Below, piece by piece: positions 5,212 to 56,891 of a stretch of DNA of 64,000 nucleotides. The stretch lies in sequence record PQ821640; one strand, given 5' to 3'. The position numbers and the translations under genes are program-made. Every line of letters begins with the position of its first letter. Position 1 is the first letter of the stretch. Under the pieces are notes generated by a model. It made no database searches, had not been told where the DNA came from, and saw nothing but the letters and a program-made list of their open reading frames with translations. The stretch comes from Escherichia phage SD2.

Positions 5212-5767
5212 TGTCTTCTCCTTTACCTGCCCTCCAGCCTAAATAGAAAGCCTCTCTGGTGATCTTTTGCAACTCGTTTAAAGAGATAGTTACAACTAAA
5301 TCATCTTCAATCTCTAGCTTTGAGTCTTCTTCTGTCTCAATGCAAGTATTATGCACTTTGTGGTAAGGTTTGTCAACACGTTTAAATTTATTATTTTCAA
5401 TACTGAAGAAGCAATCTGGATCTTCTTCTCCATCACCCCAGCCCTGGTTAGGGTCTTCTTCAGATCTTTCTGTTGGGATCTCACCTGTAAAGTGCTCTTC
5501 TAATATCATAGCGATACCATCTCCAAGATCGGAAGAGAACATCAAGTTACAAACTTCTTCCCAAGGCATAGACCACTTAAATCTTTTACGATTGCCATGT
5601 TTATCTTCTTCGTTAGAGAAAACACTACCATAGCTATCATAATTGCCATACATCTCTTCAACAACTTTACCACCTTTCAAAAGAAATAGGTAGCAAGGAG
5701 AGCCATCGAAAGAGGTAGAAAGAGCAGCATTACCAGACTCTTTGCACAAGAAACTAAAACACCCCAT
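5204..5767 (-). CDS. hypothetical acidic protein
   Basis: ORF track 187 aa. Confidence 0.45.
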   Translation of the reverse strand: MGCFSFLCKESGNAALSTSFDGSPCYLFLLKGGKVVEEMYGNYDSYGSVFSNEEDKHGNRKRFKWSMPWEEVCNLMFSSDLGDGIAMILEEHFTGEIPTERSEEDPNQGWGDGEEDPDCFFSIENNKFKRVDKPYHKVHNTCIETEEDSKLEIEDDLVVTISLNELQKITREAFYLGWRAGKGEDSA

Positions 5768-5967
5768 TATACACCAGCCTTAAGATCAATTAAGGCCAAA
5801 GTTGTTTCAGAATGTGTTGGCTCGTCTACAGGTGCAGTCATATGATAATACAAAAAGTTTTCGGCATCATACCAATTTGACTCTTGACATTGTTTCCAAC
5901 CATCAATGAAAGCATCTTCCATAATGGTTTGTAATTCTTCACGAGTTAAGTGAATATCTTTATTCAT
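5767..5967 (-). CDS. hypothetical protein
   Basis: ORF track 66 aa; start/stop overlap with neighbours. Confidence 0.4.
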   Translation of the reverse strand: MNKDIHLTREELQTIMEDAFIDGWKQCQESNWYDAENFLYYHMTAPVDEPTHSETTLALIDLKAGV

Positions 5968-6200
5968 TACACATTCTCCTCTTTTACCAAATCCATCGTT
6001 GAACTATCAAAACCATCTTTAGAAGAATAGGTATAGACAGAACGTAGTTCTCGCAGGACAGTAAATACATTAGGATCATCTAACCAAGCATCCTGGAGGA
6101 GAACATAACGATCTTCATTGTCGTACTGGACAGCGATCATAGAACCAGACAGTTTGTAAATTTTAATATTCATAATATATTTCTCCTTAAAGTAGACCAC
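5967..6200 (-). CDS. hypothetical protein
   Basis: ORF track 77 aa. Confidence 0.4.
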   Translation of the reverse strand: MVYFKEKYIMNIKIYKLSGSMIAVQYDNEDRYVLLQDAWLDDPNVFTVLRELRSVYTYSSKDGFDSSTMDLVKEENV

Positions 6201-7290
6201 GTTTAACAGTTTGAATCATACCATCTTCAAGAGATTGTACTTCTTGAATGTAATCAATACGAGCAGCACGGGCTTCAGTGTTGATCCGATTAGTTTCTTC
6301 CAACATTTTAACTAAGTTTTCTTGATCGCGACGTAATGTCTCAATATCCAATACTTGACGATTAGCAAGTTGTGTAGCTTCAATTTGGTTTTGTGCAGCC
6401 AGATCACTACCCATTGCAATAGCAGCATTAAATTCATTCAGTACATTGTTCTGTGTATCGGCTGCTTTCTTCTGGCGTAGACTTTCAATATACATAGAAA
6501 AGTTTGCAGAGTAAGCAGGAATAACATTATTCACAATATTACGGGCTGATCGCATCAAACTTGCAGATACTTTCTGCATACTTTGTACACGTGGCCCCAT
6601 CTGAACACACAGTAAACGCAAGGCTTTCAGGTCTGCAATACGAATTTCAAGCAGATCCATAGTATCACGAGTACGTTGACGCTCTTCTACTTCATTTTCA
6701 GGTAGTGTATTAAGGCGAACTTCTTCTTTTTCATAAGTAGCTGTTAGAAGCTCTATATCCCTGTTTAAGCTAAGAGCATATTTTGCAATAGCCTCTTCTA
6801 AACGTTGCAGATATCGTAAAGAATCTTCTTCTTTTTTCAAGTCTGTTTGGAGTGTCTTTACCAAACCTTCAATACGATTATTGATGGTGTCAAATTCACC
6901 AAACAAATCTTCTTTCATACCTAATACTTTCTTAACTAGTTTACCTAAGCCTTTAGATTGTTTAATAGAATTAGGATCAAGTTGCTTTGCTTGCTTAATA
7001 AGTGCAGTTAAACGCTCACTCATTTCATCTCCCTGAGATGAACGCTGGTGTTTAAGCACTTCCGCATTAAGGTTACGAAGAGTAAGTCCTGCATCAGCAC
7101 CAACCTGTTCAATCTCTTCACGAGACATTGGAGGCAGCATTTGTACAGGTCGTGCAACAGCAGGGGCATATACAGGGCTTGCATCCATAGCAGTTGGAGC
7201 AAACAAAGACTTACTTTTTTCTGTTGTTGCCGTGAATACACTCATTTCAGACGGTTTGCTTTTTACGGCACTGATAAAAGGACTGGACAT
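6187..7290 (-). CDS. TelA-like (toxic anion resistance) coiled-coil protein
   Basis: 367 aa, long helical/coiled-coil region, size and composition like TelA/KlaA; Ter-gene context. Confidence 0.5.
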   Translation of the reverse strand: MSSPFISAVKSKPSEMSVFTATTEKSKSLFAPTAMDASPVYAPAVARPVQMLPPMSREEIEQVGADAGLTLRNLNAEVLKHQRSSQGDEMSERLTALIKQAKQLDPNSIKQSKGLGKLVKKVLGMKEDLFGEFDTINNRIEGLVKTLQTDLKKEEDSLRYLQRLEEAIAKYALSLNRDIELLTATYEKEEVRLNTLPENEVEERQRTRDTMDLLEIRIADLKALRLLCVQMGPRVQSMQKVSASLMRSARNIVNNVIPAYSANFSMYIESLRQKKAADTQNNVLNEFNAAIAMGSDLAAQNQIEATQLANRQVLDIETLRRDQENLVKMLEETNRINTEARAARIDYIQEVQSLEDGMIQTVKRGLL

Positions 7291-19777: not shown

Positions 19778-22552
19778 TTAGTTTACCAGTTTATTTATGT
19801 CTGGTAAAAGATTTATTTCACCTAAGAAATCACCTTCACCTTCCTCTAGCCAACTTTCATATGCTTGTGCATGATTATAGTTACCATCAAAAGAATCTGC
19901 AACAAATTTTTCTACAGTTTTTCGAGATGTGCCAGCGCCAAATACACCAAGTTTAATACCATTGATCGGTAAAGTGGTGCTTGTGGGTACTTTCTCTGTT
20001 GCAACACGGTTGATATCTATAATCTCCTGTACGGTTGTATTCCATTGTAAGCATTTAACACAACGGGTGTGCGCTACATACAGTAGGTTTCGCTCTGCCT
20101 CTTCTAGTCCTACCCATTCACCAGTCTTTTTATCATAGTTGGAAGGAAAATCATTAGCAACAATAACCTGATCCCACTCCAAACCTTTAGACTTATGTGC
20201 TGTAGTCAGTGTGACTTTTGCTGTAGGAGAATTTCTATGCGTTCTAAGTGTATGTGCTATAGTGTTTGCCTTACCAGAAACTACAATGTTTAACAAGCGT
20301 TTAGCATCTGGATCAGCCTCTGCACACTCAACAAATTCATTCCAGTCTGCGTAAGGTAATACAGTTTCATGTTTTACTTTCTCAATATCTCCTCTTCGAA
20401 GAGCATTAACACTATCTACCATAGAGATAAAATCCCTGGTATCTACGTTAATAATAATTTCTTCCCCATCTGCAATACGATCCATTGCCTCCATAAGCAA
20501 GGTTAAATTCTTGCGAAAGATGATAGTGTAAGGTTTTGTATAGTCTACAACATCTGATTTGTAGCTACCTACTACAGTATCAAAGCCTTTACCAACCAAA
20601 GGATGACGCAAAGGTTCTTTATCACTTAAAATCATATTCGCAATGTTTGCCACTTTGGGGCCAAAACGGAAGCAAGCAGTTAATGGAAGCTCTGCCCCAT
20701 ACTTAGCTGTTTCAATCATCATATTAGAGCTACCTCTAAATTGATAAATGCAGTTATGGCTAAGAATTTCATTGCCAAAGAAGTTAGCAGTATCCTCTAC
20801 TTCAATATCATAATAGATACCATCACTATCTACAATGTCCACAATTTCTTCTGCCGTTACAGTATCACCATCTTTTACCAATACAGACATGCCTTTAAAC
20901 AAACCCGCTGCCGGAATTAAATTATATTTGGCGGTGTTCACAGAGGACATGCATTCTTTTAAAGATGCAAACGGAACTATTTCAAGGATCTTTTGTGCAA
21001 AACTCAATGCTTCACGATAAGAGTTGAAATATTTACGTACACGGTAACGACCTTCCAATTTAGCAACACTCACGCTTACACCTGCTTCAATGAGTGAAGC
21101 ATAGATTGGCATTTCACTTTCTGTCCACTCAAAGCTAACTTGTGTTCCTTTACAACTTTGTGCTCGCAAAGTCACTGTTAACATTTTTCTTTCATCTACT
21201 GCACAATTGATGCTGTGCCAGTGTGGATAAGCAAAATGATAATCTTTATCCTCTAAAAGTTTAAAACCATTTTGTCCGAATTGTTCAAAGATGTTGTTGA
21301 TTCTTTCTTGATTAATACCGCGTGAACTTGCTTCAAATACACAAGTAGGAATGCCATATTGTAAACTGTATGCCATTTCTTTTTCCATAGCAGCTTCACG
21401 GTTTTCAACAATATCCAACACCCATAACTTCTGTGCTTTTTCAGAACGTGTACGTTGCCCCAGTTTAGAAAAACCTTCTTTATCATCGAATTTGTTAGTG
21501 ATCCCTACTCGGAAGCCTAAATCTTTTCTCCACATTAGGTATACCACCATCTGATCATCTTTCAGAACATAAGGTGAAGCCCAAATACGATGGTTATGTG
21601 TCATATCTAAAGTCTTACCTTTAGCAGTAATAACATTCCTACCTTTTGTACGTGTAGATAAAGTCTTATTTGTTACTTTTCTAAATGTAACTTTACCGTT
21701 AGAATAAGACTCTACCTTATCACCTATTTGCAGGTCTTTCATTGTAACCTGACCATTTTCGGTATTAAGTACCGTGTTTTCTGACACACATTGGAATTCA
21801 TCACCAACTACCACAATTTGTTTTGCAGATTTAGCATTTCGCAGAATAGACAAGAATGCAGGGTTAACATCCTGGAATTCATCCCCAAAAATAATGTCAT
21901 AACCAAGATCAGCACCAGACAATTCAAACAATTTTACATAGGTGTCGTGCGTCATCAAAGTATCTGTGTTAGGGTCAATGCGCTCTCGCCACAATTGTTT
22001 TGCATACTTAACTACTTCTGTAATTAGTTTGTGTTCGTTAATACCTTTTCTTTTAATATCTGCAAGATGTACACTAGGAAAATGTTTACGGCTGATAAAA
22101 GGATCATCCGAAAATTCAAACTTACCTACGGTTTGCTTGATCATTAAACCAATCATAGCACGAGTTAAAAGTGTTTTCCCTCGTTTATCAATAAGATTAT
22201 TAATCTTAAATTTCTTTGCTATCTCACTACCTGTACCTGCAACGTTAACATACTGTCCTTCTGGTCGGGACAGTTTTGCACGTAAACGATGATCCAGGAA
22301 TTGATAGCAAATGGAATGCAATGTACGGCATTCTACATTTGGTGGCATCTTACGCCGTGCTTCTTCTGCCATGCTTTTATTGAAAGCTAAGTAAAGAATG
22401 CGATCTTCTGTACTGTTAGCCAGCAAATAAAGTGTTGACGTTTTTCCTGATCCAGATTTAGCTTGGATAGTTAAAAACCGATGATCTGGAAAAGCCTCCT
22501 TAATAGCTGTTTGCTCTTCTGTTGGAGTAAAACTCAACTCTTTCTTAGCCAT
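19778..22552 (-). CDS. UvrD-like SF1 DNA helicase interrupted by an intein
   Basis: Start at MAKKELSF (RBS AAGAGAGG); Walker A AKSGSGKTS, motif II IIFGDEFQDV; motif III GDEFQ / CIYQFRG is split by a 346-aa insertion. Confidence 0.8.
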   Translation of the reverse strand: MAKKELSFTPTEEQTAIKEAFPDHRFLTIQAKSGSGKTSTLYLLANSTEDRILYLAFNKSMAEEARRKMPPNVECRTLHSICYQFLDHRLRAKLSRPEGQYVNVAGTGSEIAKKFKINNLIDKRGKTLLTRAMIGLMIKQTVGKFEFSDDPFISRKHFPSVHLADIKRKGINEHKLITEVVKYAKQLWRERIDPNTDTLMTHDTYVKLFELSGADLGYDIIFGDEFQDVNPAFLSILRNAKSAKQIVVVGDEFQCVSENTVLNTENGQVTMKDLQIGDKVESYSNGKVTFRKVTNKTLSTRTKGRNVITAKGKTLDMTHNHRIWASPYVLKDDQMVVYLMWRKDLGFRVGITNKFDDKEGFSKLGQRTRSEKAQKLWVLDIVENREAAMEKEMAYSLQYGIPTCVFEASSRGINQERINNIFEQFGQNGFKLLEDKDYHFAYPHWHSINCAVDERKMLTVTLRAQSCKGTQVSFEWTESEMPIYASLIEAGVSVSVAKLEGRYRVRKYFNSYREALSFAQKILEIVPFASLKECMSSVNTAKYNLIPAAGLFKGMSVLVKDGDTVTAEEIVDIVDSDGIYYDIEVEDTANFFGNEILSHNCIYQFRGSSNMMIETAKYGAELPLTACFRFGPKVANIANMILSDKEPLRHPLVGKGFDTVVGSYKSDVVDYTKPYTIIFRKNLTLLMEAMDRIADGEEIIINVDTRDFISMVDSVNALRRGDIEKVKHETVLPYADWNEFVECAEADPDAKRLLNIVVSGKANTIAHTLRTHRNSPTAKVTLTTAHKSKGLEWDQVIVANDFPSNYDKKTGEWVGLEEAERNLLYVAHTRCVKCLQWNTTVQEIIDINRVATEKVPTSTTLPINGIKLGVFGAGTSRKTVEKFVADSFDGNYNHAQAYESWLEEGEGDFLGEINLLPDINKLVN
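20753..21790 (-). mobile_element. intein (about 346 aa) inside helicase motif III
   Basis: Insertion begins with Cys (CVSENTVL, Hint block A-like) and ends SHN followed by Cys (+1); flanking exteins reconstitute GDEFQCIYQFRG. Confidence 0.75.
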
Positions 22553-22553
22553 T

Positions 22554-23030
22554 TCAACCTCTCTTAATTTGTTTAACAAGCATAGGAACAAAATCTCGTT
22601 TTAAAATTTGTTCAATAATATGATCAGGTAGCTGTTGGAAATTATAATTAAACGCTACTGTCTCACCTTTAGGTGTTTCTACCCGCACATATAGCATGTT
22701 ACGAAGTTTATCCACTTGTGCTGTATATTCTAAACCATGTAATTGATGCATTGCAAACATCAAATCATCAGTTTCAGTTTGGAATCTATCCCTTGTTTGC
22801 ATCAAGGATAAGGTAAAAGGTAGATTTTCCCTAAGAGCCACCTTCTTAGGAATTAGTGAAGGGAAATACTCCCCAATAACTTCCTGTGTAAGCTGAATAC
22901 ACTCTTTTTCAAGTTGGTTTTGTTCCTTAAGTTCACAAACACTTTTTTGTAAAGTGTTAACCTCTTTTTGCAAAGCTGCTAGTTGAGCACTTAACTTTCT
23001 TTTTTGATTACGACCAAAACGTTTAGACAT
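22554..23030 (-). CDS. hypothetical coiled-coil protein
   Basis: ORF track 158 aa. Confidence 0.5.
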   Translation of the reverse strand: MSKRFGRNQKRKLSAQLAALQKEVNTLQKSVCELKEQNQLEKECIQLTQEVIGEYFPSLIPKKVALRENLPFTLSLMQTRDRFQTETDDLMFAMHQLHGLEYTAQVDKLRNMLYVRVETPKGETVAFNYNFQQLPDHIIEQILKRDFVPMLVKQIKRG

Positions 23031-31373: not shown

Positions 31374-32363
31374 ATGGCAGCACCAAAATCATGGGAACAA
31401 TATAAAGAAGAGTGTATACCAATAGCAGAGAGTAAGCAAATCCAAATCTTAGGATGGACGGGACAATGGAAAGGGGTCCACACAAAACTTGATTTGTTGT
31501 GCCATTGTGGTTATAAATGGGATACTACAAGTATTAACAGTTTTAAATGTGGTAGCGGTTGTCCACAATGTAGGAGGAAGAATATAAGGAAGTCACAAAC
31601 AATGTCCGACGATCAACATATTGCAGATTTCTTTTCTACAGGGGAATTTAAGGAAGGCACTATCTTCACTAACACAGGAACACGGGGTAAAGGATGTAGG
31701 AATATTATCTGGATGGTTGAATGTCCTGTTTGCTCTCATGATGAATATGTTCAAGCAGGTGTTTGTGATGGTAAATTTTACTCTGAAGGAGATAACCTTA
31801 AACGAGGGTATATTCCGTGTCGTTGTGGGAACTATCGGTATACAGAAGACCAGATCACCTATAGGGTAAAAAAGGAAGTAGAAGGGAAAGGGTATGTCTG
31901 GGTAGATTGGATTACCAAACCCTCTTCTATAGGTAAGTTTAAATATCTTTGTCTTGTGCATGGTGAGCAGATAGGGAGTGCTAATAATTTATTAAGCCTC
32001 GGTCGAGGTTGTCCTATGTGTGCTGGTCATAGTCAGCAGCAGTTATATATTAATATTGTTAAGGATGATAATATTATAGTTGCTCTTAAGTTTGGTATAG
32101 CTAAAGATAGTGATAGGCGATTAAACATTCAAAATAGCCGTAATCTGTTTTTTATGGAACGTATTTGTTTATATGATTTTAGCACAGTGAAACAGTGTAA
32201 GGCTGCTGAAAGAGCTATAAAGAAAAAATTAAAAACTGGTATTTTAACAGCAAGAGAGTTGAAAGACGGTCATACAGAAACAGTAAGTGTTTCTGATTTG
32301 GAAAATCTTCAAAAAATTATTACACAATATGGTGGCAAGTTAGTATACAATAAGGAGGTGTAA
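31374..32363 (+). CDS. zinc-ribbon repeat protein with C-terminal T5orf172/GIY-YIG-like region
   Basis: 329 aa; several CxxC...CxxC pairs; C-terminal VALKFGIAKDSDRRL resembles T5orf172 motif. Confidence 0.5.
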   Translation: MAAPKSWEQYKEECIPIAESKQIQILGWTGQWKGVHTKLDLLCHCGYKWDTTSINSFKCGSGCPQCRRKNIRKSQTMSDDQHIADFFSTGEFKEGTIFTNTGTRGKGCRNIIWMVECPVCSHDEYVQAGVCDGKFYSEGDNLKRGYIPCRCGNYRYTEDQITYRVKKEVEGKGYVWVDWITKPSSIGKFKYLCLVHGEQIGSANNLLSLGRGCPMCAGHSQQQLYINIVKDDNIIVALKFGIAKDSDRRLNIQNSRNLFFMERICLYDFSTVKQCKAAERAIKKKLKTGILTARELKDGHTETVSVSDLENLQKIITQYGGKLVYNKEV

Positions 32364-32915
32364 ATGCGGATTACTGATAAGTATGTGTTCTTCTTTTCAG
32401 CAAAAGATGAATTTAGCAACTGGTATCTATCATCTTTTATTGAACCTTTAGCACCCAAGTATAATAATTCTATTACAAGTTCTGTTGAATTTACTTGTGT
32501 GGAACAATATATGATGTGGAGAAAAGCATGTTTGTTTTATGATTACAGTATTGCATCTTCTATTTTAACCGGAGATCTAAGATATACAGGAGAAAAAGAA
32601 CAAGCATATTATAAGCGACTAGGCAGATTAGTTAAAGATTATGATGAAGATACCTGGACTTCTTTACGGGAGAAGATTGTCAAACGTGGTTTGTATCTTA
32701 AATACACACAAAATGAAGATCTCAAAAATAAACTTATAACCTACGCAGATAAGGAGTTCGTAGAGGCAAGCCCTTATGATTCTATTTATGGTATCAAAAT
32801 GGGGATGTGGGATCGTGACGTGGAAAATAAGGACTGTTGGAAAGGACAAAATCTTTTAGGAAAATGGCATACAGACCTTGCTGTTTATCTAAAAGCACAA
32901 TCTGATATTTCCTGA
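32364..32915 (+). CDS. NADAR (YbiA-like) domain protein
   Basis: 183 aa; EFSNW, EQYMMWRKACLF, LGRLV, KFTQNEDLKNKLITY..EFVEAS..D..YGIKMG pattern of the NADAR/DUF1768 family. Confidence 0.7.
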   Translation: MRITDKYVFFFSAKDEFSNWYLSSFIEPLAPKYNNSITSSVEFTCVEQYMMWRKACLFYDYSIASSILTGDLRYTGEKEQAYYKRLGRLVKDYDEDTWTSLREKIVKRGLYLKYTQNEDLKNKLITYADKEFVEASPYDSIYGIKMGMWDRDVENKDCWKGQNLLGKWHTDLAVYLKAQSDIS

Positions 32916-32940
32916 TATTTTGAAAATTTTTATTTTTATA

Positions 32941-32955
32941 AAAAGGGGTGTGGGT
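32941..32955 (+). promoter_or_regulatory. AAAGGGGTGTG motif, copy 1
   Basis: Recurs at 44180 and 44259 at the borders of the cassette array. Confidence 0.3.
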
Positions 32956-33129
32956 TTCATGTACGGAAATTCACCCTCTGAATAATATATTCAGAGTAAA
33001 TATTATTTTGTACTCTGTTAATAAATTATTTAATTTGTTTGTTGGATTATGATATCTGGTTTTTAAAAGGCATACTATCTCTTAACTACTACTTATAACA
33101 GAACAGTAAAATCATTTTTATAAAAAGGA

Positions 33130-33340
33130 CAAAATTATTTAAAGTTTTTACAGATTTTTGGATACAAATTTTGAAAATGAAAAGTTCAAGTTTGGTCAAA
33201 ATTATTTAAAGTTTTTGTATGTATTTCTATCCAGATTTTGAAAATGAAAACTTCAATTTTTTAAAAATTCCCCAGTTTATTTAAAGTTTTTTTACCTTTT
33301 TCCGTAGAAAAATCAAAAATGAAAAGTTCAATTTCGTGTT
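33130..33340 (+). repeat. three tandem ~68-70 bp repeats (ATTTAAAGTTTTT ... ATTTTGAAAATGAAAAGTTCAA)
   Basis: Direct repeat units at about 33130, 33198 and 33266; each contains the inverted repeat TTGAA..TTCAA. Confidence 0.6.
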
Positions 33341-33349
33341 TTTATGGGT

Positions 33350-33470
33350 ATGCGTATGATAATCATTCTCATTTGTAAATGAGAATCATTATCATTTAAT
33401 TATGTAAATGATAAGCATTCTCACTAAGAGAATGAGAATCATTAGCAAATGAGAATTTTTCTCATTTGCA
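33350..33470. promoter_or_regulatory. cluster of at least 4 Fur-box-like palindromes
   Basis: ATGATAATCATTCTCATT, AATGAGAATCATTATCATT, AATGATAAGCATTCTC, AATGAGAATCATTAGCAAATGAGAA versus Fur consensus GATAATGATAATCATTATC. Confidence 0.45.
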
Positions 33471-33479
33471 GAATAACGC

Positions 33480-34100
33480 GCAGGGGCGGTGTTTGTCTCG
33501 CGCTCCCGTGTCCCCTCGCCATACAATAAGAATAGCATAACCAACAACAAAAGCAAGCGATTATTTTTATCTTTACATTTCTTTACAAATTTATTTTAGA
33601 CGAGCTACCGGCGATCAACCTTCCAACCAGTGCCCCTGGTATGTTAGCCCCGCCTTTACGCCGTGGGGGTGGCGCTTCCTCTTCTGTATGTAAAACAGTA
33701 TAAGCCCGATCCCTGGGCTTGTCAAGATTATTTTTTGTTTTCTTGCCAGGATAGGACACCTAACCAAAAATACATGTCGCCCCGTGCCCCTGGCGGGATC
33801 TTGCTTTCCCCGCCGCCACTGCAAGCCCATAAATAACCATTTACGAACGTATCAAAGTGATCTATCTCTTCCACCTTATGATCGCCCAGGTTGAGAACGG
33901 TTTCAACCTTTAAGCCCGTTGCGCTTGCTACCTGGTGCACCGTGCCGCCTTGCCAGCCCAATGAGTGCATGAGATGTAAAGGAGTATTTGTCATGGTATC
34001 GCCCTTTCTTTGATGTGCGCCCTGGTTGGCGCGGTAGAAAGATAATAGCCGTTTCCTTTATAGATAGCAAGCAAAAAAGAAATGAAAAAAGATTAAAAAA
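33480..34100. other. GC-rich compositional island
   Basis: Visibly higher GC than the flanking AT-rich sequence. Confidence 0.5.
33728..33994 (-). CDS. hypothetical protein encoded in the GC-rich island
   Basis: ORF track 88 aa; overlapping alternative frames present. Confidence 0.3.
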   Translation of the reverse strand: MTNTPLHLMHSLGWQGGTVHQVASATGLKVETVLNLGDHKVEEIDHFDTFVNGYLWACSGGGESKIPPGARGDMYFWLGVLSWQENKK

Positions 34101-42237: not shown

Positions 42238-42312
42238 CTTGCTTTATAGCCTCTGTTAATTTATAGTTATCGTGTAGGGCAAGCAATTTTAAACGGTAAA
42301 CGAGGAATCTCC

Positions 42313-42696
42313 ATGAGCAATATCATCAACCTGGCGGCTACTGTAAACGGTAAAGATTTTAACGGCGCTGTAGATCGTGATCCTATGTGGTACTTGTCAG
42401 TATTTAAAGGCGATCTGGTTGAAGTTAGAACAACCGAAGGGTATAGCGATGATTATAAATGCGAGATCCATTTACATAACTGGTACACGGGGAAAACTTA
42501 TGCGCTAAACCATGCGTTTATCGGGAAAATTGAATATCGCGAGATGATCGACGAAGAAACGGGGCAAGATTTTAGCGATTATGTTTATATTCGTTCAGAA
42601 ACATTAGCCGAACGTTTGATCGAGAAAATGAAAGCAAAAAATAAAATTAATTTAGCTCATTGGCTTGATATAACAAACGATCCGGCTTATAAGTAA
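42313..42696 (+). CDS. hypothetical protein
   Basis: ORF track 127 aa; RBS ACGAGGAA. Confidence 0.55.
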   Translation: MSNIINLAATVNGKDFNGAVDRDPMWYLSVFKGDLVEVRTTEGYSDDYKCEIHLHNWYTGKTYALNHAFIGKIEYREMIDEETGQDFSDYVYIRSETLAERLIEKMKAKNKINLAHWLDITNDPAYK

Positions 42697-42711
42697 ATAA
42701 CATTTCACACC

Positions 42712-42740
42712 AGGGCGCACAAAGCGCCCTTTCTTTTTTA
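42712..42740 (+). terminator. rho-independent terminator
   Basis: AGGGCGCACAAAGCGCCCTTTCTTTTTT. Confidence 0.7.
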
Positions 42741-42752
42741 CCTAAATAAAGA

Positions 42753-42772
42753 TGATAGCTTTTACCTATCAA
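42753..42772. promoter_or_regulatory. inverted repeat TGATAGCTTTTACCTATCA
   Basis: Second copy of TGATAG-N-CTATCA site, again just downstream of a terminator. Confidence 0.4.
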
Positions 42773-42939
42773 AAACGTTCACCGAAAAAAGTGAATAGAT
42801 CGCGGTATCGAGCTAATCAAGGAGCAGATGAACAACCATACCATGAAGATCATAAGGCGCTTACAACGTGTTTTAGACCGCTTATTTTTAATTTCTTCAT
42901 GTAACTATCTGGCAAAAACAGCCTTTTTCTTGTCTTTCC

Positions 42940-43020
42940 TCTTAAATGATAATCATTCTTATTTATAGCTGATTATTTATGCAATAAACTGAATAATGTA
43001 ATAATGATAATCATTCTTAA
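42940..43020. promoter_or_regulatory. two Fur-box-like sites (AAATGATAATCATTCTTAT; ATAATGATAATCATTCTTAA)
   Basis: 14-16 of 16-18 positions match Fur consensus. Confidence 0.45.
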
Positions 43021-43844
43021 CTTAAGACCATCTAACCTATAAAATAATAAGTTATCTAACTAAATTAAAACTAATTATCTCACCTTTATTTATAACTTAC
43101 TGTTACTATCTCATTGATAACCTTATATTAAACAACAATAACTAATATAAATTATTACTAAGCTAAATATAATCTATCTAACCTTTAAAACTATAATTAT
43201 AATCTATCGAATTGTTGCACAAAGTAACTATTAAATTGTTAGTAACATTACTAAATAATTAATATCCTATCTATTTATGATCTAATCTTTACCTTCCTAT
43301 TTATTACCTAAATAATCATTTCATACCGTAATCATTTCATACAATAATTATAACAAGAAATATAATTAACAAGCGTATCATTAGCAGCCTATGCCGGACA
43401 CATAGGCGGCTAATAATAACGCAACTACACACCCCACATAATAACCATCACCGATAGTTATTATTTGTGCTTATGTAGCTTGCAACAACTGCAAGCGCAA
43501 CAATATACATGGTATATTGTATTCCCTTACATTGTTGCGGTGCGTTATTATTAGCTAATGTTTGGAACATTGGCTATAATATAAGCTATCCAATAATAAA
43601 CATAGTGAATAATAACCCTGATGATCATAATGCGCCACCTTCCAGGGGGCGCTATGTGAACACAAAGAAATCTTTCTTGTCAAGAAAAATATTACCATTA
43701 TTGCGCAAAATTATTTACATCTGAATAGATGGTTTTTCATACTATTGCCCCATATAGCCTATCATTTGTTGAGCCTACTTTCTTAAAAGCGCAATAAATT
43801 AGAATTATCTTGATTTTTAGGGCGTTTTATAGTATAGAAAATAT

Positions 43845-43865
43845 GCAAATGATAATCATTATCAG
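43845..43865. promoter_or_regulatory. Fur-box-like site GCAAATGATAATCATTATCAG
   Basis: 16/17 match to GATAATGATAATCATTATC. Confidence 0.5.
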
Positions 43866-44029
43866 TTATCTTCCACGGGTGGCACTATTTCACGCAGGAT
43901 CATTTCATTTGGCAAGGTGTATATAGATGTTTAGACTTGCCAAGCCATTGATTTGCTTAGAATTTATCTGTTTTGTTGTGAGTAATGCCTTTCTTGCTCA
44001 GAAAATAATCAAAAGTCTTATAAGTCATT

Positions 44030-44062
44030 GAATGATAATGCAAATGATAATAATTCTCATTG
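44030..44062. promoter_or_regulatory. Fur-box-like tandem site GAATGATAATGCAAATGATAATAATTCTCATTG
   Basis: Overlapping GATAAT hexamer repeats. Confidence 0.4.
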
Positions 44063-44179
44063 ATATTTGAGGGGGACGGTCAGCAGAAATCGGGGGGCGC
44101 TGAAAATCGCGTTAAGCACCTCTCGCAAGCGAGCAGTATTTTGCGGCAAGTTATTGATATTATTGACTTTACGCTTATG

Positions 44180-44290
44180 AAAAGGGGGTGTGTCGAAATA
44201 AATCGGGTATACCGGAAAATTTTTGTGGCATAGATATTTATTTGTCTATATTATGTACAAAGGGGTGTGTTAAAAATATTAGGTATATAT
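44180..44290 (+). promoter_or_regulatory. two copies of AAAGGGGTGTG-N-AAATA-N-T(C/T)(G/A)GGTATA motif
   Basis: 44180-44210 and 44259-44290; upstream of the 44468 operon. Confidence 0.35.
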
Positions 44291-44467
44291 AGAATAATTG
44301 ATAGGGAAATCCTATACTAAATCCTTCATTATTGCAGCGGGTGAAAGACAGAATCGAAGATGCAAATAATGCTTGCATTGGATAGAAATGTCTGTATAGT
44401 GGTTTGCATACCGCGCACGACGCGTTTCCATTTTCAATAAAATGTTAGCATTATGGGGAGGTAGAAA

Positions 44468-44935
44468 ATGAGCGAAAAACCAGTGAGAGCTTCCACAATA
44501 TTGGAAGCATACCTGCAATGCGTTGTAGATTACGTCAAGAGAAACTCCAGCCTACTGGACGTCTACCGTGCAGATGATGGCGATGTTGGTATTGTCTATG
44601 TGAAACACACTTTATCCGCGCGTAATGAGGTTTTCCGTGCAAGTATGTTAGGGTGTGATCGTGTTCGTGTGAACTATTTAGACCCGAACTATCGCCATGC
44701 TCTTGAAGATATTGAAGATTATCTTCCTCGCTGCCCGACAGGTAATGCAAAAGTGGCAGAAGAAGCCCCACAAGGTGTTGATTATCGTGTAGCCTTGTGG
44801 AAAAAGGCACGTCAACTACAAGTGCTGAATGAAATGAAAGAAGAGATTGAAAAAGAACTGAAAGAAGATTTTGGTATGCTTCCAAAAGACGCTTTGAAAT
44901 GGTATGATGAACTAGGAGGAGAAAGTTATGAATAA
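44468..44935 (+). CDS. hypothetical protein (first gene of small-gene operon)
   Basis: ORF track 155 aa; RBS GGGGAGG. Confidence 0.6.
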   Translation: MSEKPVRASTILEAYLQCVVDYVKRNSSLLDVYRADDGDVGIVYVKHTLSARNEVFRASMLGCDRVRVNYLDPNYRHALEDIEDYLPRCPTGNAKVAEEAPQGVDYRVALWKKARQLQVLNEMKEEIEKELKEDFGMLPKDALKWYDELGGESYE

Positions 44936-56078: not shown

Positions 56079-56891
56079 TTATTTAGTCAAATGATCTTCT
56101 ATCATTTTTATGAAAGCAGGATTGCTAAAAGCATCTGCGGCCTTTTCTCGATAAACAAAGACTCCTCTATCTTCGTAAAGAAGAGTTTCTTCGTAATTAA
56201 TTCCTGGGTTAACAACAATCATTTTTGTACCCATATTAAGTGCAGGGAATAATTCCCAATTAAAATTGATAACTTGGTTTGAACATCCTACTACTACAAC
56301 CAAATCTTGCATGGTCAAAGTATCAAACAAGTGAGCCATATCTGCATACAAAGGTGCAGCCTCACCAAAAAATACAACATTAGGCTTCACCCAGTTGTAA
56401 TCATCTATGTTTATACTGTTGTAACCAATATCTACCAGTGTTTTGTAATCCCCAGGATGCATACGGTAAACTACTTCAGGAAGATATCCGTGCACGTGGA
56501 TAACAGAATCCCTGTCTACACCTGCTCGCTCTAGTAGATCATCAACGTTTGTTGTCAAGTTTACTACTTGGTTAGGATATTCCTTAAACCACTTTGCTAT
56601 TTGAATATGTGCAGCATTAGGTTGTACATCTTTAAGCTCAACACGTCTTTTGTTATAAAATTCGTGTGTTTTGGCATACAAATCCATACCGTTTTCGTCT
56701 ACACCACCAACCACTGGAAGATCTGGTGATGTTCTCACACGATAACCTGCTTGGAAAGCTCCAATATCGCAGATCTCTTCTAAATCCCATTCTTCCCATA
56801 AGGCACGACCACTATCTGTGTCTGTTCGGAATGTTCGAATCCCACTGTCTGCACTTAAACCAGCTCCACTAACAAAAATTACTCTTCGCAT
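56079..56891 (-). CDS. Sir2-family (sirtuin-like) NAD-dependent protein
   Basis: 270 aa; FVSGAGLSADSGIRTFR (GAGxS..SGIxTFR), TTNVDDLLERAG, HVHG motifs of the Sir2 fold. Confidence 0.75.
   Translation of the reverse strand: MRRVIFVSGAGLSADSGIRTFRTDTDSGRALWEEWDLEEICDIGAFQAGYRVRTSPDLPVVGGVDENGMDLYAKTHEFYNKRRVELKDVQPNAAHIQIAKWFKEYPNQVVNLTTNVDDLLERAGVDRDSVIHVHGYLPEVVYRMHPGDYKTLVDIGYNSINIDDYNWVKPNVVFFGEAAPLYADMAHLFDTLTMQDLVVVVGCSNQVINFNWELFPALNMGTKMIVVNPGINYEETLLYEDRGVFVYREKAADAFSNPAFIKMIEDHLTK

Follow-up and report, generated by a model that had tools for sequence, protein, structure and literature searches.

What does a compact phage genome keep in 1.7 kb of DNA without a convincing gene? The question is raised by Escherichia phage SD2 (sequence record PQ821640), from which a stretch of 64,000 nucleotides, referred to here as the window, was analyzed. 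Positions 42741–44460 of the window lie between a terminator at 42712–42740 and the first gene of a small-gene operon at 44468. An earlier note, made from the letters alone, described this interval as an AT-rich non-coding spacer between a cassette array and the operon, and proposed that an origin, a packaging or injection-related signal, or a major regulatory switch is located there. The interval is very probably the junction of the two physical chromosome ends (concatemer junction) of a phi92-like phage, with positions 43772–44114 repeated at the ends. The repeat lies mid-way in the interval, which replaces the view of a spacer between two gene blocks. The proposal of a packaging signal was essentially right, though the reason for it had been missed, and the terminal repeat can now be located.

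Probable chromosome ends and the terminal repeat

The window belongs to a phi92-like myovirus, a coliphage of Justusliebigvirus, Stephanstirmvirinae, and 124 related phage records match the interval, with ECGD1 at the top (96.5% identical). The identity of the interval is already known, as it is annotated in phi92, UAB_1, and BME3. It can be divided into three parts:

42741–43771: untranslated DNA of the right end, about 1 kb of the right chromosome end
43772–44114: direct terminal repeat (DTR), 343 bp, non-coding, present as one collapsed copy; placed by the DTR annotation of phi92 and UAB_1 and by BME3
44115–44467, plus strand: left-end leader, 353 bp, which feeds the early small-gene operon

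The boundaries come from the alignment of both ends of phi92. The features PHI92_DTR-L and PHI92_DTR-R, 343 bp at both ends of the record (NC_023693), map to 43772–44114; the record ends at the base matching window position 44114, and the gene at 44468 is matched by the first gene of phi92, located 699 bp from the left end of that record. In Salmonella phage UAB_1, a 343-bp repeat is annotated as in phi92. For BME3, a repeat of 342 bp was obtained by PhageTerm read analysis (PMC12210895), and its record begins at window position 44113. The PHB05 record and a contig of the PD06 type stop or start at the left boundary, 43771/43772. The Phapecoctavirus Schickermooser carries an exact 329-bp repeat at both record ends, with the same junction sequences. 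In the relatives, the termini are fixed: in four separately deposited records from two genera, the boundaries agree within 1 nt. The genomes of Stephanstirmvirinae have also been described in 2025 as those that "terminate with direct terminal repeats" (PMC12695924). The same sequence is found at both virion ends in phi92, UAB_1, and Schickermooser, and for SD2 it is assigned by orthology. Since just one copy of the repeat 43772–44114 occurs in the 64-kb window, the SD2 contig appears to be a permuted assembly in which the repeat was collapsed to one copy. For annotators, the true chromosome start would be 43772, and the 343-bp repeat would count twice.

Boundary heptamer and conserved islands

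The two boundaries of the repeat share a short sequence:

43768–43774, plus strand: left boundary heptamer GTTG^AGC, in the context TTGTTG^AGCCTAC, with the virion left end at 43772
44111–44117, plus strand: right boundary heptamer GTTA^AGC, in the context GCGTTA^AGCACC, with the virion right end at 44114

Both boundaries break the heptamer GTTR^AGC at the same point, and the two copies have the same strand orientation. This heptamer has eight copies in 64 kb when both strands are counted, and the two in the interval are located exactly at the boundaries. The junctions of Schickermooser read AATGTTG^AGCAAG and CGCGTTA^AGCACT. At the left boundary, TGTTGAGC is invariant in the five sequences of a cross-genus alignment, and it stands 328–411 bp from CGCGTTnAGCA in 11 of 11 lineages checked, metagenomic ones included. 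We infer that the packaging nuclease recognizes GTTR^AGC in its context. A shared cut heptamer, which also occurs in the second genus, was found described nowhere in the searchable literature.

Some lineages carry two or three copies of TGTTGAGCCAC upstream of the left boundary. In KP13-26 (L017 2464–2607) and in the lineages L027 and L038, two or three copies of TGTTGAGC(C)AC precede the predicted left boundary, and these extra copies may be reiterated recognition sites or alternative cut sites.

ESCO13, phiWec190, ASO2A, and Klebsiella phage KP13-26 have a gene-free gap of about 1.5–2 kb in the corresponding position. The comparison across related phages that the earlier note had suggested was performed with the five-sequence alignment and local BLAST, and it did reveal conserved blocks. 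While the flanking DNA is about 70% identical across genera, the following islands stand out within it:

42712–42740: the terminator
42747–42830: non-coding block
42942 and 43000: Fur-like palindromes
43373–43560: hairpin cluster
43772 and 44114: both repeat boundaries
43845–43863: box C
44028–44064: array D
44250–44320: surroundings of GGGGTGT
44339–44417: promoter-like module

Hairpin cluster to the left of the repeat

The most structured of these islands is built as follows:

43376–43555, minus strand: conserved hairpin cluster with TTAGC repeats, 210–400 bp left of the repeat
43387–43407: preceding hairpin, ahead of the closing stem
43409–43423 with 43541–43555: closing stem of 15 bp, which encloses three hairpins (RNAalifold)
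43425–43478, 43441–43461, and 43478–43496: the enclosed hairpins (RNAalifold)

Palindromes had been noticed in this part of the interval from the start; they exist at 43386–43411 and at 43481–43503 with 43530–43544, and they are parts of the cluster. Structure prediction, which had been named as a check, showed that 43330–43670 folds far better than shuffled sequences (z −7.5 for the plus and −6.4 for the minus strand). Relatives for the alignment were collected from viral and metagenome contigs by means of an invariant 23-nt pattern of the hairpin DNA. This worked better than the use of the Gp30.8-like protein as bait, which recovered just five loci of relatives in viral contigs. Six hits of the DNA pattern were unrelated chance matches and were discarded, and 16 distinct sequences were aligned. 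Across the 43 pairs of the cluster and these 16 sequences (688 cells), 98.3% of cells are paired, compared with 90.5% in shuffles and 20–44% when the partners are slid. Changes on both sides, that is, compensatory ones, affect 13 pairs (49 cells), and not one of 500 shuffles reaches the paired percentage, the compensatory counts, or the covariation score. The stem ATAACCATC/GATAGTTAT, with its 3-nt loop, is rebuilt in other lineages with a wholly different sequence, for example, GGATAATC/GATTATCC.

The cells that are not Watson–Crick pairs are distributed unevenly between the strands. All 12 are A.C on the plus strand, which corresponds to G.T or G.U on the minus strand, and there is no G.T on the plus strand. 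This bias, which represents about seven independent events (two-sided p ~0.02), suggests that the bottom strand folds, either as single-stranded DNA or as leftward RNA. In the latter case, the cluster could be a structured non-coding RNA gene, transcribed leftward, perhaps from a promoter that overlaps a Fur box in the right-end copy of the repeat. The strong covariation, with a structure kept by compensatory changes, agrees with an RNA gene, but folded single-stranded DNA would do equally. The same is true of the mismatches: all 12 are G.U on the minus strand, yet G.T is also the least destabilizing mismatch in folded DNA, so the bias, with its few independent events, cannot separate RNA from single-stranded DNA. 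A minus-strand promoter-like sequence, GTGCCA-16-GATAAT, overlaps box C, but it is not conserved in Phapecoctavirus; no terminator was found on the minus strand, and neither strand showed a conserved promoter or terminator. No Rfam family matched, either between 41 and 46 kb at E values up to 1 or in the whole window at the gathering score. Taken together, an RNA gene is unlikely.

The hairpin cluster is accompanied by a short reiterated motif. Between the cluster and the left cut, TTAGC/GCTAA occurs in 4–12 copies, against about 0.7–1.4 expected, which is a 3–9-fold excess in every lineage and is the pattern expected of reiterated protein-binding sites. With moderate confidence, and largely by analogy, the hairpin and TTAGC cluster can be considered the best candidate for a packaging-recognition, priming, or repeat-duplication element. 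It would act in recognition or priming as folded bottom-strand DNA or as leftward RNA. In the searchable literature, we found no description of such a covarying, strand-biased hairpin cluster.

Gene content of the interval

The statement of the earlier note that no convincing open reading frame (ORF) lies between the terminator and 44468 holds, as the longest ORF on either strand has at most 71 amino acids (aa). AT-richness was also correctly noticed: the GC content of 43001–44000 is 30%, compared with 35–41% for most of the window. The small ORFs were compared with eight close relatives, about 89–96% identical (arall, inny, phi92, ECGD1, PaulScherrer, Antha, KKP_3264, and PD211). Fourteen of the 16 are broken by stops, frameshifts, or lost starts in at least one relative, and an excess of substitutions at the third codon position is absent in all 16, so that none behaves as coding. 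A 28-aa minus-strand ORF at 43957–44043 is intact in 8/8 relatives, with substitutions of 1/12/7 by codon position. A 46-aa ORF at 42828–42968 is likewise intact in 8/8. A scan for tRNA and tmRNA genes in the interval returned none.

Could small protein genes be hidden here all the same? The best case is the 46-aa ORF, which has a good Shine–Dalgarno sequence and is annotated in PaulScherrer as bas60_0145. However, its ATG is replaced by ACG in Phapecoctavirus and the start is absent in KP13-26, although the surrounding DNA is conserved. A second case is a hydrophobic 34-aa ORF at 43927–44031, within the terminal repeat, with AAGGTG 7 nt 5′ of its ATG. It is interrupted by a stop in arall and by a frameshift in phiWec190, and its substitutions at codon positions 1/2/3 (10/21/1) are the opposite of a coding pattern. 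Neither of the two matches PHROG, a search that covered four small ORFs and gave zero matches. Hidden genes of this kind are very unlikely. The 34-aa ORF had also been considered as a small hydrophobic toxin-like peptide, a reading that was rejected on the frameshift and the codon pattern.

Automated pipelines have nevertheless placed many genes in this DNA. In PP925826 (Antha), PP925843, and PQ438393, at least 10 coding sequences (CDSs) named "hypothetical protein", many of them very short, cover the matching stretch and its insertions; nine called CDSs of 29–43 aa are found inside the gap of Antha. Because the equivalent ORFs of the window are not conserved as coding, such small CDS calls are probably spurious.

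Fur-operator-like palindromes

Within and beside the repeat, there are palindromes that resemble the operator of the host iron regulator Fur:

42942–42960: palindrome A (TTAAATGATAATCATTCTT), 14 of 19 consensus positions, with a perfect 13-bp core
43000–43018: palindrome B (AATAATGATAATCATTCTT), 16 of 19, present in all close relatives
43845–43863: palindrome C (GCAAATGATAATCATTATC), 17 of 19, inside the repeat, absent in KP13-26
44028–44064, main box 44040–44058: array D of overlapping GATAAT hexamers, overlapping sites with 14–15 of 19, kept in all genera examined

Fur-box-like sites had been reported in the earlier note, and four are real (42942, 43000, 43845, and 44040, with 14, 16, 17, and 15 matching positions). 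Each is a 19-bp dyad close to the Fur consensus GATAATGATAATCATTATC, which was taken, together with the Fur titration assay, from PMC3788343. The four palindromes form one repeat family (D1, box B included), and their 12-nt core ATGATAATCATT has three copies against 0.00 expected. The core of box A is conserved in Phapecoctavirus, KP13-26, and metagenomic relatives, and TTATTTATGCAATA, between the palindromes at 42942 and 43000, is conserved across genera. In Phapecoctavirus, KP13-26, and the metagenomic relatives, one or two boxes lie 360–536 bp left of the hairpin motif; in relatives, one Fur-like box begins 71–89 nt inside the left cut and one ends about 50–63 nt before the right cut.

When box C was compared with 5,426 Escherichia coli genomes, the best match in about 5,400 of them was the fepB–entC intergenic region, 31–54 bp upstream of the entC start. 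Box C and the entC promoter site are 92% identical over about 25 nt, and a 19/19 match to box C is found just upstream of iroB. The promoters of entC and iroB are classical Fur-repressed promoters. The E. coli operators and the phage boxes are alike in the 19-bp dyad, of which the latter match 14–17 consensus positions, but the phage boxes lie in or beside the terminal repeat of a virulent phage and not before an iron-uptake gene.

In the window, sites with at least 15 of 19 matches are three in the interval, four in a tandem array of five boxes at 33352–33470, and two isolated ones at 21232 and 57073. In the complete 149.5-kb genome of PD211, seven of 11 such sites are located in the two corresponding non-coding clusters, whereas shuffled genomes contain 0–6 scattered sites. 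It is likely, though held with lower confidence than the roles in packaging and early transcription, that Fur would bind the palindromes. Its occupancy may serve iron-gated promoters, an architectural role at the junction, or the titration of Fur; that is, host Fur would probably bind the four palindromes and either gate promoters by iron status or act in an architectural or titrating way. We found conserved copies of the Fur operator in such a phage described nowhere in the searchable literature, and no paper there links Fur to virulent phages of this group.

A stronger form of this idea, compatible with a junction of chromosome ends, is an iron-sensing switch or Fur sponge, in which the four palindromes and the five at 33352–33470 are genuine host Fur operators. 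In iron-rich cells, they would repress the phage promoters beside them; alternatively, phage DNA would, as it replicates, titrate Fur and derepress iron uptake, in the way that multicopy Fur boxes act in the Fur titration assay. The likeness of box C to GATAATGATAATCATTATC and to the entC and iroB sites, the clustering in PD211 relative to shuffled genomes, and the persistence of relative positions although the flanks have diverged to about 70% identity all argue for it. In the opposite direction, a scan and manual inspection found no strong promoter that overlaps any box, about half of the copies have GAGAAT instead of GATAAT arms, and the same palindrome could be recognized by a dimeric DNA-binding protein encoded by the phage. 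When a DNA-binding or Fur-like protein was sought with Pfam among the first nine early proteins, no informative match was obtained. Beside the boxes, there are weak promoter-like sites; an invariant TTGATT element precedes box C, which recalls the arrangement at entC. We consider such a switch or sponge possible, at somewhat below an even chance, and the regulatory switch of the earlier note is no more than plausible, insofar as conserved operator-like palindromes and promoter-like blocks precede the early operon.

It is more tentative still to suggest that genuine Fur operators have become part of the terminal repeat and of two non-coding control regions throughout a subfamily of virulent enterobacterial myoviruses (the phi92-like and phAPEC8-like phages), which would read the iron status of the host or manipulate it by titration. 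Each genome would then contain some nine sites of high affinity, set at constant distances from the cut sites and beside a strand-specific folded element. Early transcription or end processing would be coupled to Fur, and the replicating phage pool could derepress the iron-uptake regulon of the host. If the operators are functional, a strictly lytic phage would be wired into the host iron regulon, which would be unusual.

Terminator, leader, and proposed early transcription

The two sides of the junction carry further putative signals for transcription, which are arranged from the right arm to the first early gene:

42712–42740, plus strand: intrinsic terminator with a 7-bp stem, six GC pairs, and a T run, which closes the last right-arm operon
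42747–42830: conserved non-coding block, with TGATAG..CTATCA at 42753–42771 and TTCAC..GTGAA at 42778–42795
43808–43838, plus strand: candidate weak promoter in the repeat, invariant TCTTGATTT, TTGATT, 17 nt, TATAGA
44115–44467, plus strand: left-end leader motifs, namely GGGGTGTG at 44185 and 44262, the palindrome CGGGTATACCGG, and promoter-like sites
44339–44417, plus strand: promoter-like module and 5′ leader, TTGCAT at 44373–44378, 16 nt, TATAGT at 44395–44400
44468–44935, plus strand: first early gene, a phi92 gp001 homologue, outside the non-coding interval

The gene upstream of the terminator (42313–42696) encodes the Gp30.8-like protein, which matches the Pfam family Phage_30_8. The terminator stem is invariant in the five genera-spanning sequences, as is TCTTGATTT in the repeat, and the block 42747–42830 is 98–99% identical among close relatives and alignable across genera. 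The order of promoter, GAAAATAT, and operator (box C) mirrors the entC promoter region. The leader is 98–100% identical among close relatives up to 44296. A sigma-70 consensus scan of 42300–44800 gave 20 promoter-like sites against 11.3 ± 2.9 expected, all with a score of 9/12 and none convincing by itself. The module 44339–44417 is 87–92% identical across genera and is located directly 5′ of different early genes in ESCO13, phiWec190, ASO2A, inny, and arall, so it appears to travel with early-gene modules. With moderate confidence, the leader 44115–44467 and the weak promoter in the repeat can be proposed to start early transcription by the host RNA polymerase.

Reiterated motifs had been listed in the earlier note, in part correctly. 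ATCTAACC occurs twice (0.04 expected), but the five copies of TTATCT (2.2 expected) are not significant. One motif had been said to be present in two copies: GGGGTGTG does recur on the plus strand, but one copy is exactly AAAGGGGTGTG and the other is AAAAGGGGGTGTG. In the whole interval, GGGGTGTG has three copies against 0.01 expected, at 44185 and 44262 on the plus strand and at 43428 on the minus strand.

We also considered a small RNA 3′ of box D that would end at the hairpin CTCGCAAGCGAG. It was rejected, since it would be interrupted by the virion end at 44114 and Phapecoctavirus does not share the hairpin.

The position around 44334, between the left-end leader and the promoter module, is a hot spot for insertions of 0.4–0.8 kb with extra small genes. 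The insertion measures about 0.4 kb in ECGD1 and Antha, with a single small gene, and about 0.8 kb in inny, where it contains two. The coordinates of these insertions in the relatives are 2245–2655 (L011), 2199–2595 (L013), and 5637–6411 (L002).

A possible replication origin and a second gene-free region

Does the interval also contain an origin of replication? The part that would be expected to unwind is the following:

43020–43370, plus strand: G-poor AT-rich spacer of 351 bp, 20% GC and 4% G, in which ATCTAACC/CTATCT recurs loosely and 43311–43348 holds a 16-bp tandem repeat

Its sequence and length vary between genera while the composition bias is kept, and from this composition it could be a DNA-unwinding or Rho-loading (rut-like) stretch. 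In an origin, this AT-rich, G-poor stretch would unwind, and the reiterated motifs or hairpins would be sites for an initiator or for priming. The low GC content, the reiterated ATCTAACC and TTAGC motifs, and the likeness of the strand-biased hairpin cluster to single-strand initiation signals are in favor of such a role. The iteron-like motifs, however, amount to just two or three loose copies, and no other part is as poorly conserved between genera as the AT-rich stretch. The interval lacks a perfect DnaA box and any cluster of such boxes, with four scattered matches that contain one mismatch, and consensus sites for DnaA, Chi, and IHF form no meaningful cluster. Cumulative GC skew follows the direction of transcription, with a mere local dip at 43–44 kb; in rV5, the skew has likewise been reported to follow transcription (PMC3606486). 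In addition, the region 32916–33727, with 67-bp tandem repeats and five palindromes, looks more like an origin. An origin in 42741–44460 is hence improbable; weak iteron-like motifs and an AT-rich stretch are all that can be cited for this option of the earlier note, which gains no positive support.

The second gene-free region, 32916–33727, is a better candidate for an origin or operator region. The motif of 44185 and 44262 recurs there at 32943 as AAAAAGGGGTGTGGG. A 67-bp tandem repeat occupies 33130–33260, a partial further copy extends to about 33330, and 33352–33470 holds five Fur-operator-like palindromes in tandem. The conservation of 33448–33727 reaches well outside the subfamily: parts of the 812-bp query are matched by 329 phage records, including rV5-like, Klebsiella, Cronobacter, Pectobacterium, and Erwinia phages, and the matching DNA is usually unannotated. 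No Rfam family matched 33448–33727, and 33466–33745, when folded as a possible RNA, was no more stable than shuffles.

Proposed packaging at the junction and comparison with known systems

With the interval read as a junction of chromosome ends, the following course of events can be proposed. The virion chromosome would start at 43772 and end at 44114, with the 343 bp carried at both ends. By analogy with short-repeat phages of the T7 type, replication would yield head-to-tail concatemers in which each junction has one repeat. The packaging enzyme would recognize the junction and cut or nick it at both GTTR^AGC heptamers, and DNA synthesis would duplicate the repeat, which would give two copies per packaged chromosome. 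The left end, with the early promoters, would be expressed first after entry. By the same analogy, we hold with high confidence that SD2 would package its DNA from concatemers cut sequence-specifically at both heptamers, and that the 343-bp repeat would be duplicated.

Several observations weigh against this picture or parts of it. The ends of SD2 are deduced from relatives that are 93–96% identical, and the window has a single copy of the repeat. A terminase gene was not found in the 64-kb window. The packaging role of the hairpin cluster is an analogy with T7, and the leader has no individually convincing sigma-70 promoter, the best being TTGCAT-16-TATAGT with a score of 8/12. Finally, a five-copy Fur-like array is located at about 33.4 kb, far from the ends, so the Fur-like boxes cannot be purely packaging elements.

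The closest systems are the repeat regions of phi92, UAB_1, BME3, and Schickermooser, whose likeness is that of orthologous DNA, about 93–96% identical, with the same 343-bp repeat and boundaries. The phi92 group also has a Gp30.8-like gene on the right arm and a gp001 homologue on the left arm, as here. These are other isolates, and in SD2 the repeat is collapsed inside the contig and not placed at the record ends. The heptamer, the covarying hairpins, and the Fur-like boxes are unannotated in those records and in searchable papers. To our knowledge, almost nothing has been published about the recognition and processing of the ends in therapeutic phages of the phi92, phAPEC8, and rV5 types. 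The GTTR^AGC heptamer and the covarying hairpin/TTAGC cluster would offer concrete, mutable targets for a packaging assay and for the engineering of broad-host-range phages.

In T7, sequences of the right end beside the repeat are needed for packaging. The T7 junction reportedly contains a 160-bp terminal repeat, right-end packaging sequences, and left-end early promoters, details that are said to go back to Dunn and Studier in 1983 and to Chung and Hinkle in 1990. Its single repeat has to be duplicated, and a hairpin intermediate has been observed (PMC4281155). The SD2 junction resembles it in the short exact repeat with fixed ends and one copy per junction to be duplicated, in the palindromic or hairpin DNA and short reiterated motifs that flank the repeat on the right-end side, and in the putative early promoters for the host RNA polymerase directly after the left repeat. 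There is no sequence homology, however; SD2 belongs to myoviruses of about 147 kb without a phage RNA polymerase, its junction is deduced from sequence, and its repeat has twice the length and contains operator-like palindromes of its own.

In the cos region of lambda, the nick sites of cosN are flanked by terminase-binding repeats and a site for the host protein IHF, and the cohesive ends have 12 nt. The likeness is an analogy, namely sequence-specific cuts near reiterated protein-binding sites and a site for a host protein at a fixed spacing. The differences are the 12-nt cohesive ends in place of a 343-bp repeat and the host factor, which is IHF and not Fur.

The injection-related signal proposed in the earlier note would correspond to an injection stop, or first-step-transfer signal, of the T5 type. 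The left terminal repeat of T5 carries such a stop signal and encodes pre-early genes. This repeat is about 10 kb long (10,219 bp; PMC8594841). The non-coding DNA of SD2 resembles that of T5 superficially, as both are rich in repeats and palindromes and are associated with a terminal repeat. In contrast to the multi-kilobase repeat with pre-early genes, that of SD2 has 343 bp and no conserved ORF, so no pre-early genes could be expressed from a first-transferred segment, and homology to T5-like phages is no more than expected by chance. A signal of this type is extremely improbable.

Other observations

Some of the database records that match this phage group deserve a comment. The GenBank records MG0656xx named as "Campylobacter phage" (A150, C3, A145, and A110a) are about 95% identical to this coliphage group; they were probably assigned the wrong host, or else represent contaminants from co-isolation. 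Elsewhere in the window, 19778–22591 on the minus strand encodes a 937-aa UvrD-like helicase that is split by an intein (Intein_splicing and Hint domains, residues ~266–612). Accessory genes at 56079–56891 (minus strand), 32364–32915 (plus), 31374–32363 (plus), and 6187–7290 (minus) encode Sir2, NADAR, CapR/T5orf172, and TelA domains and may have counter-defence or stress functions.

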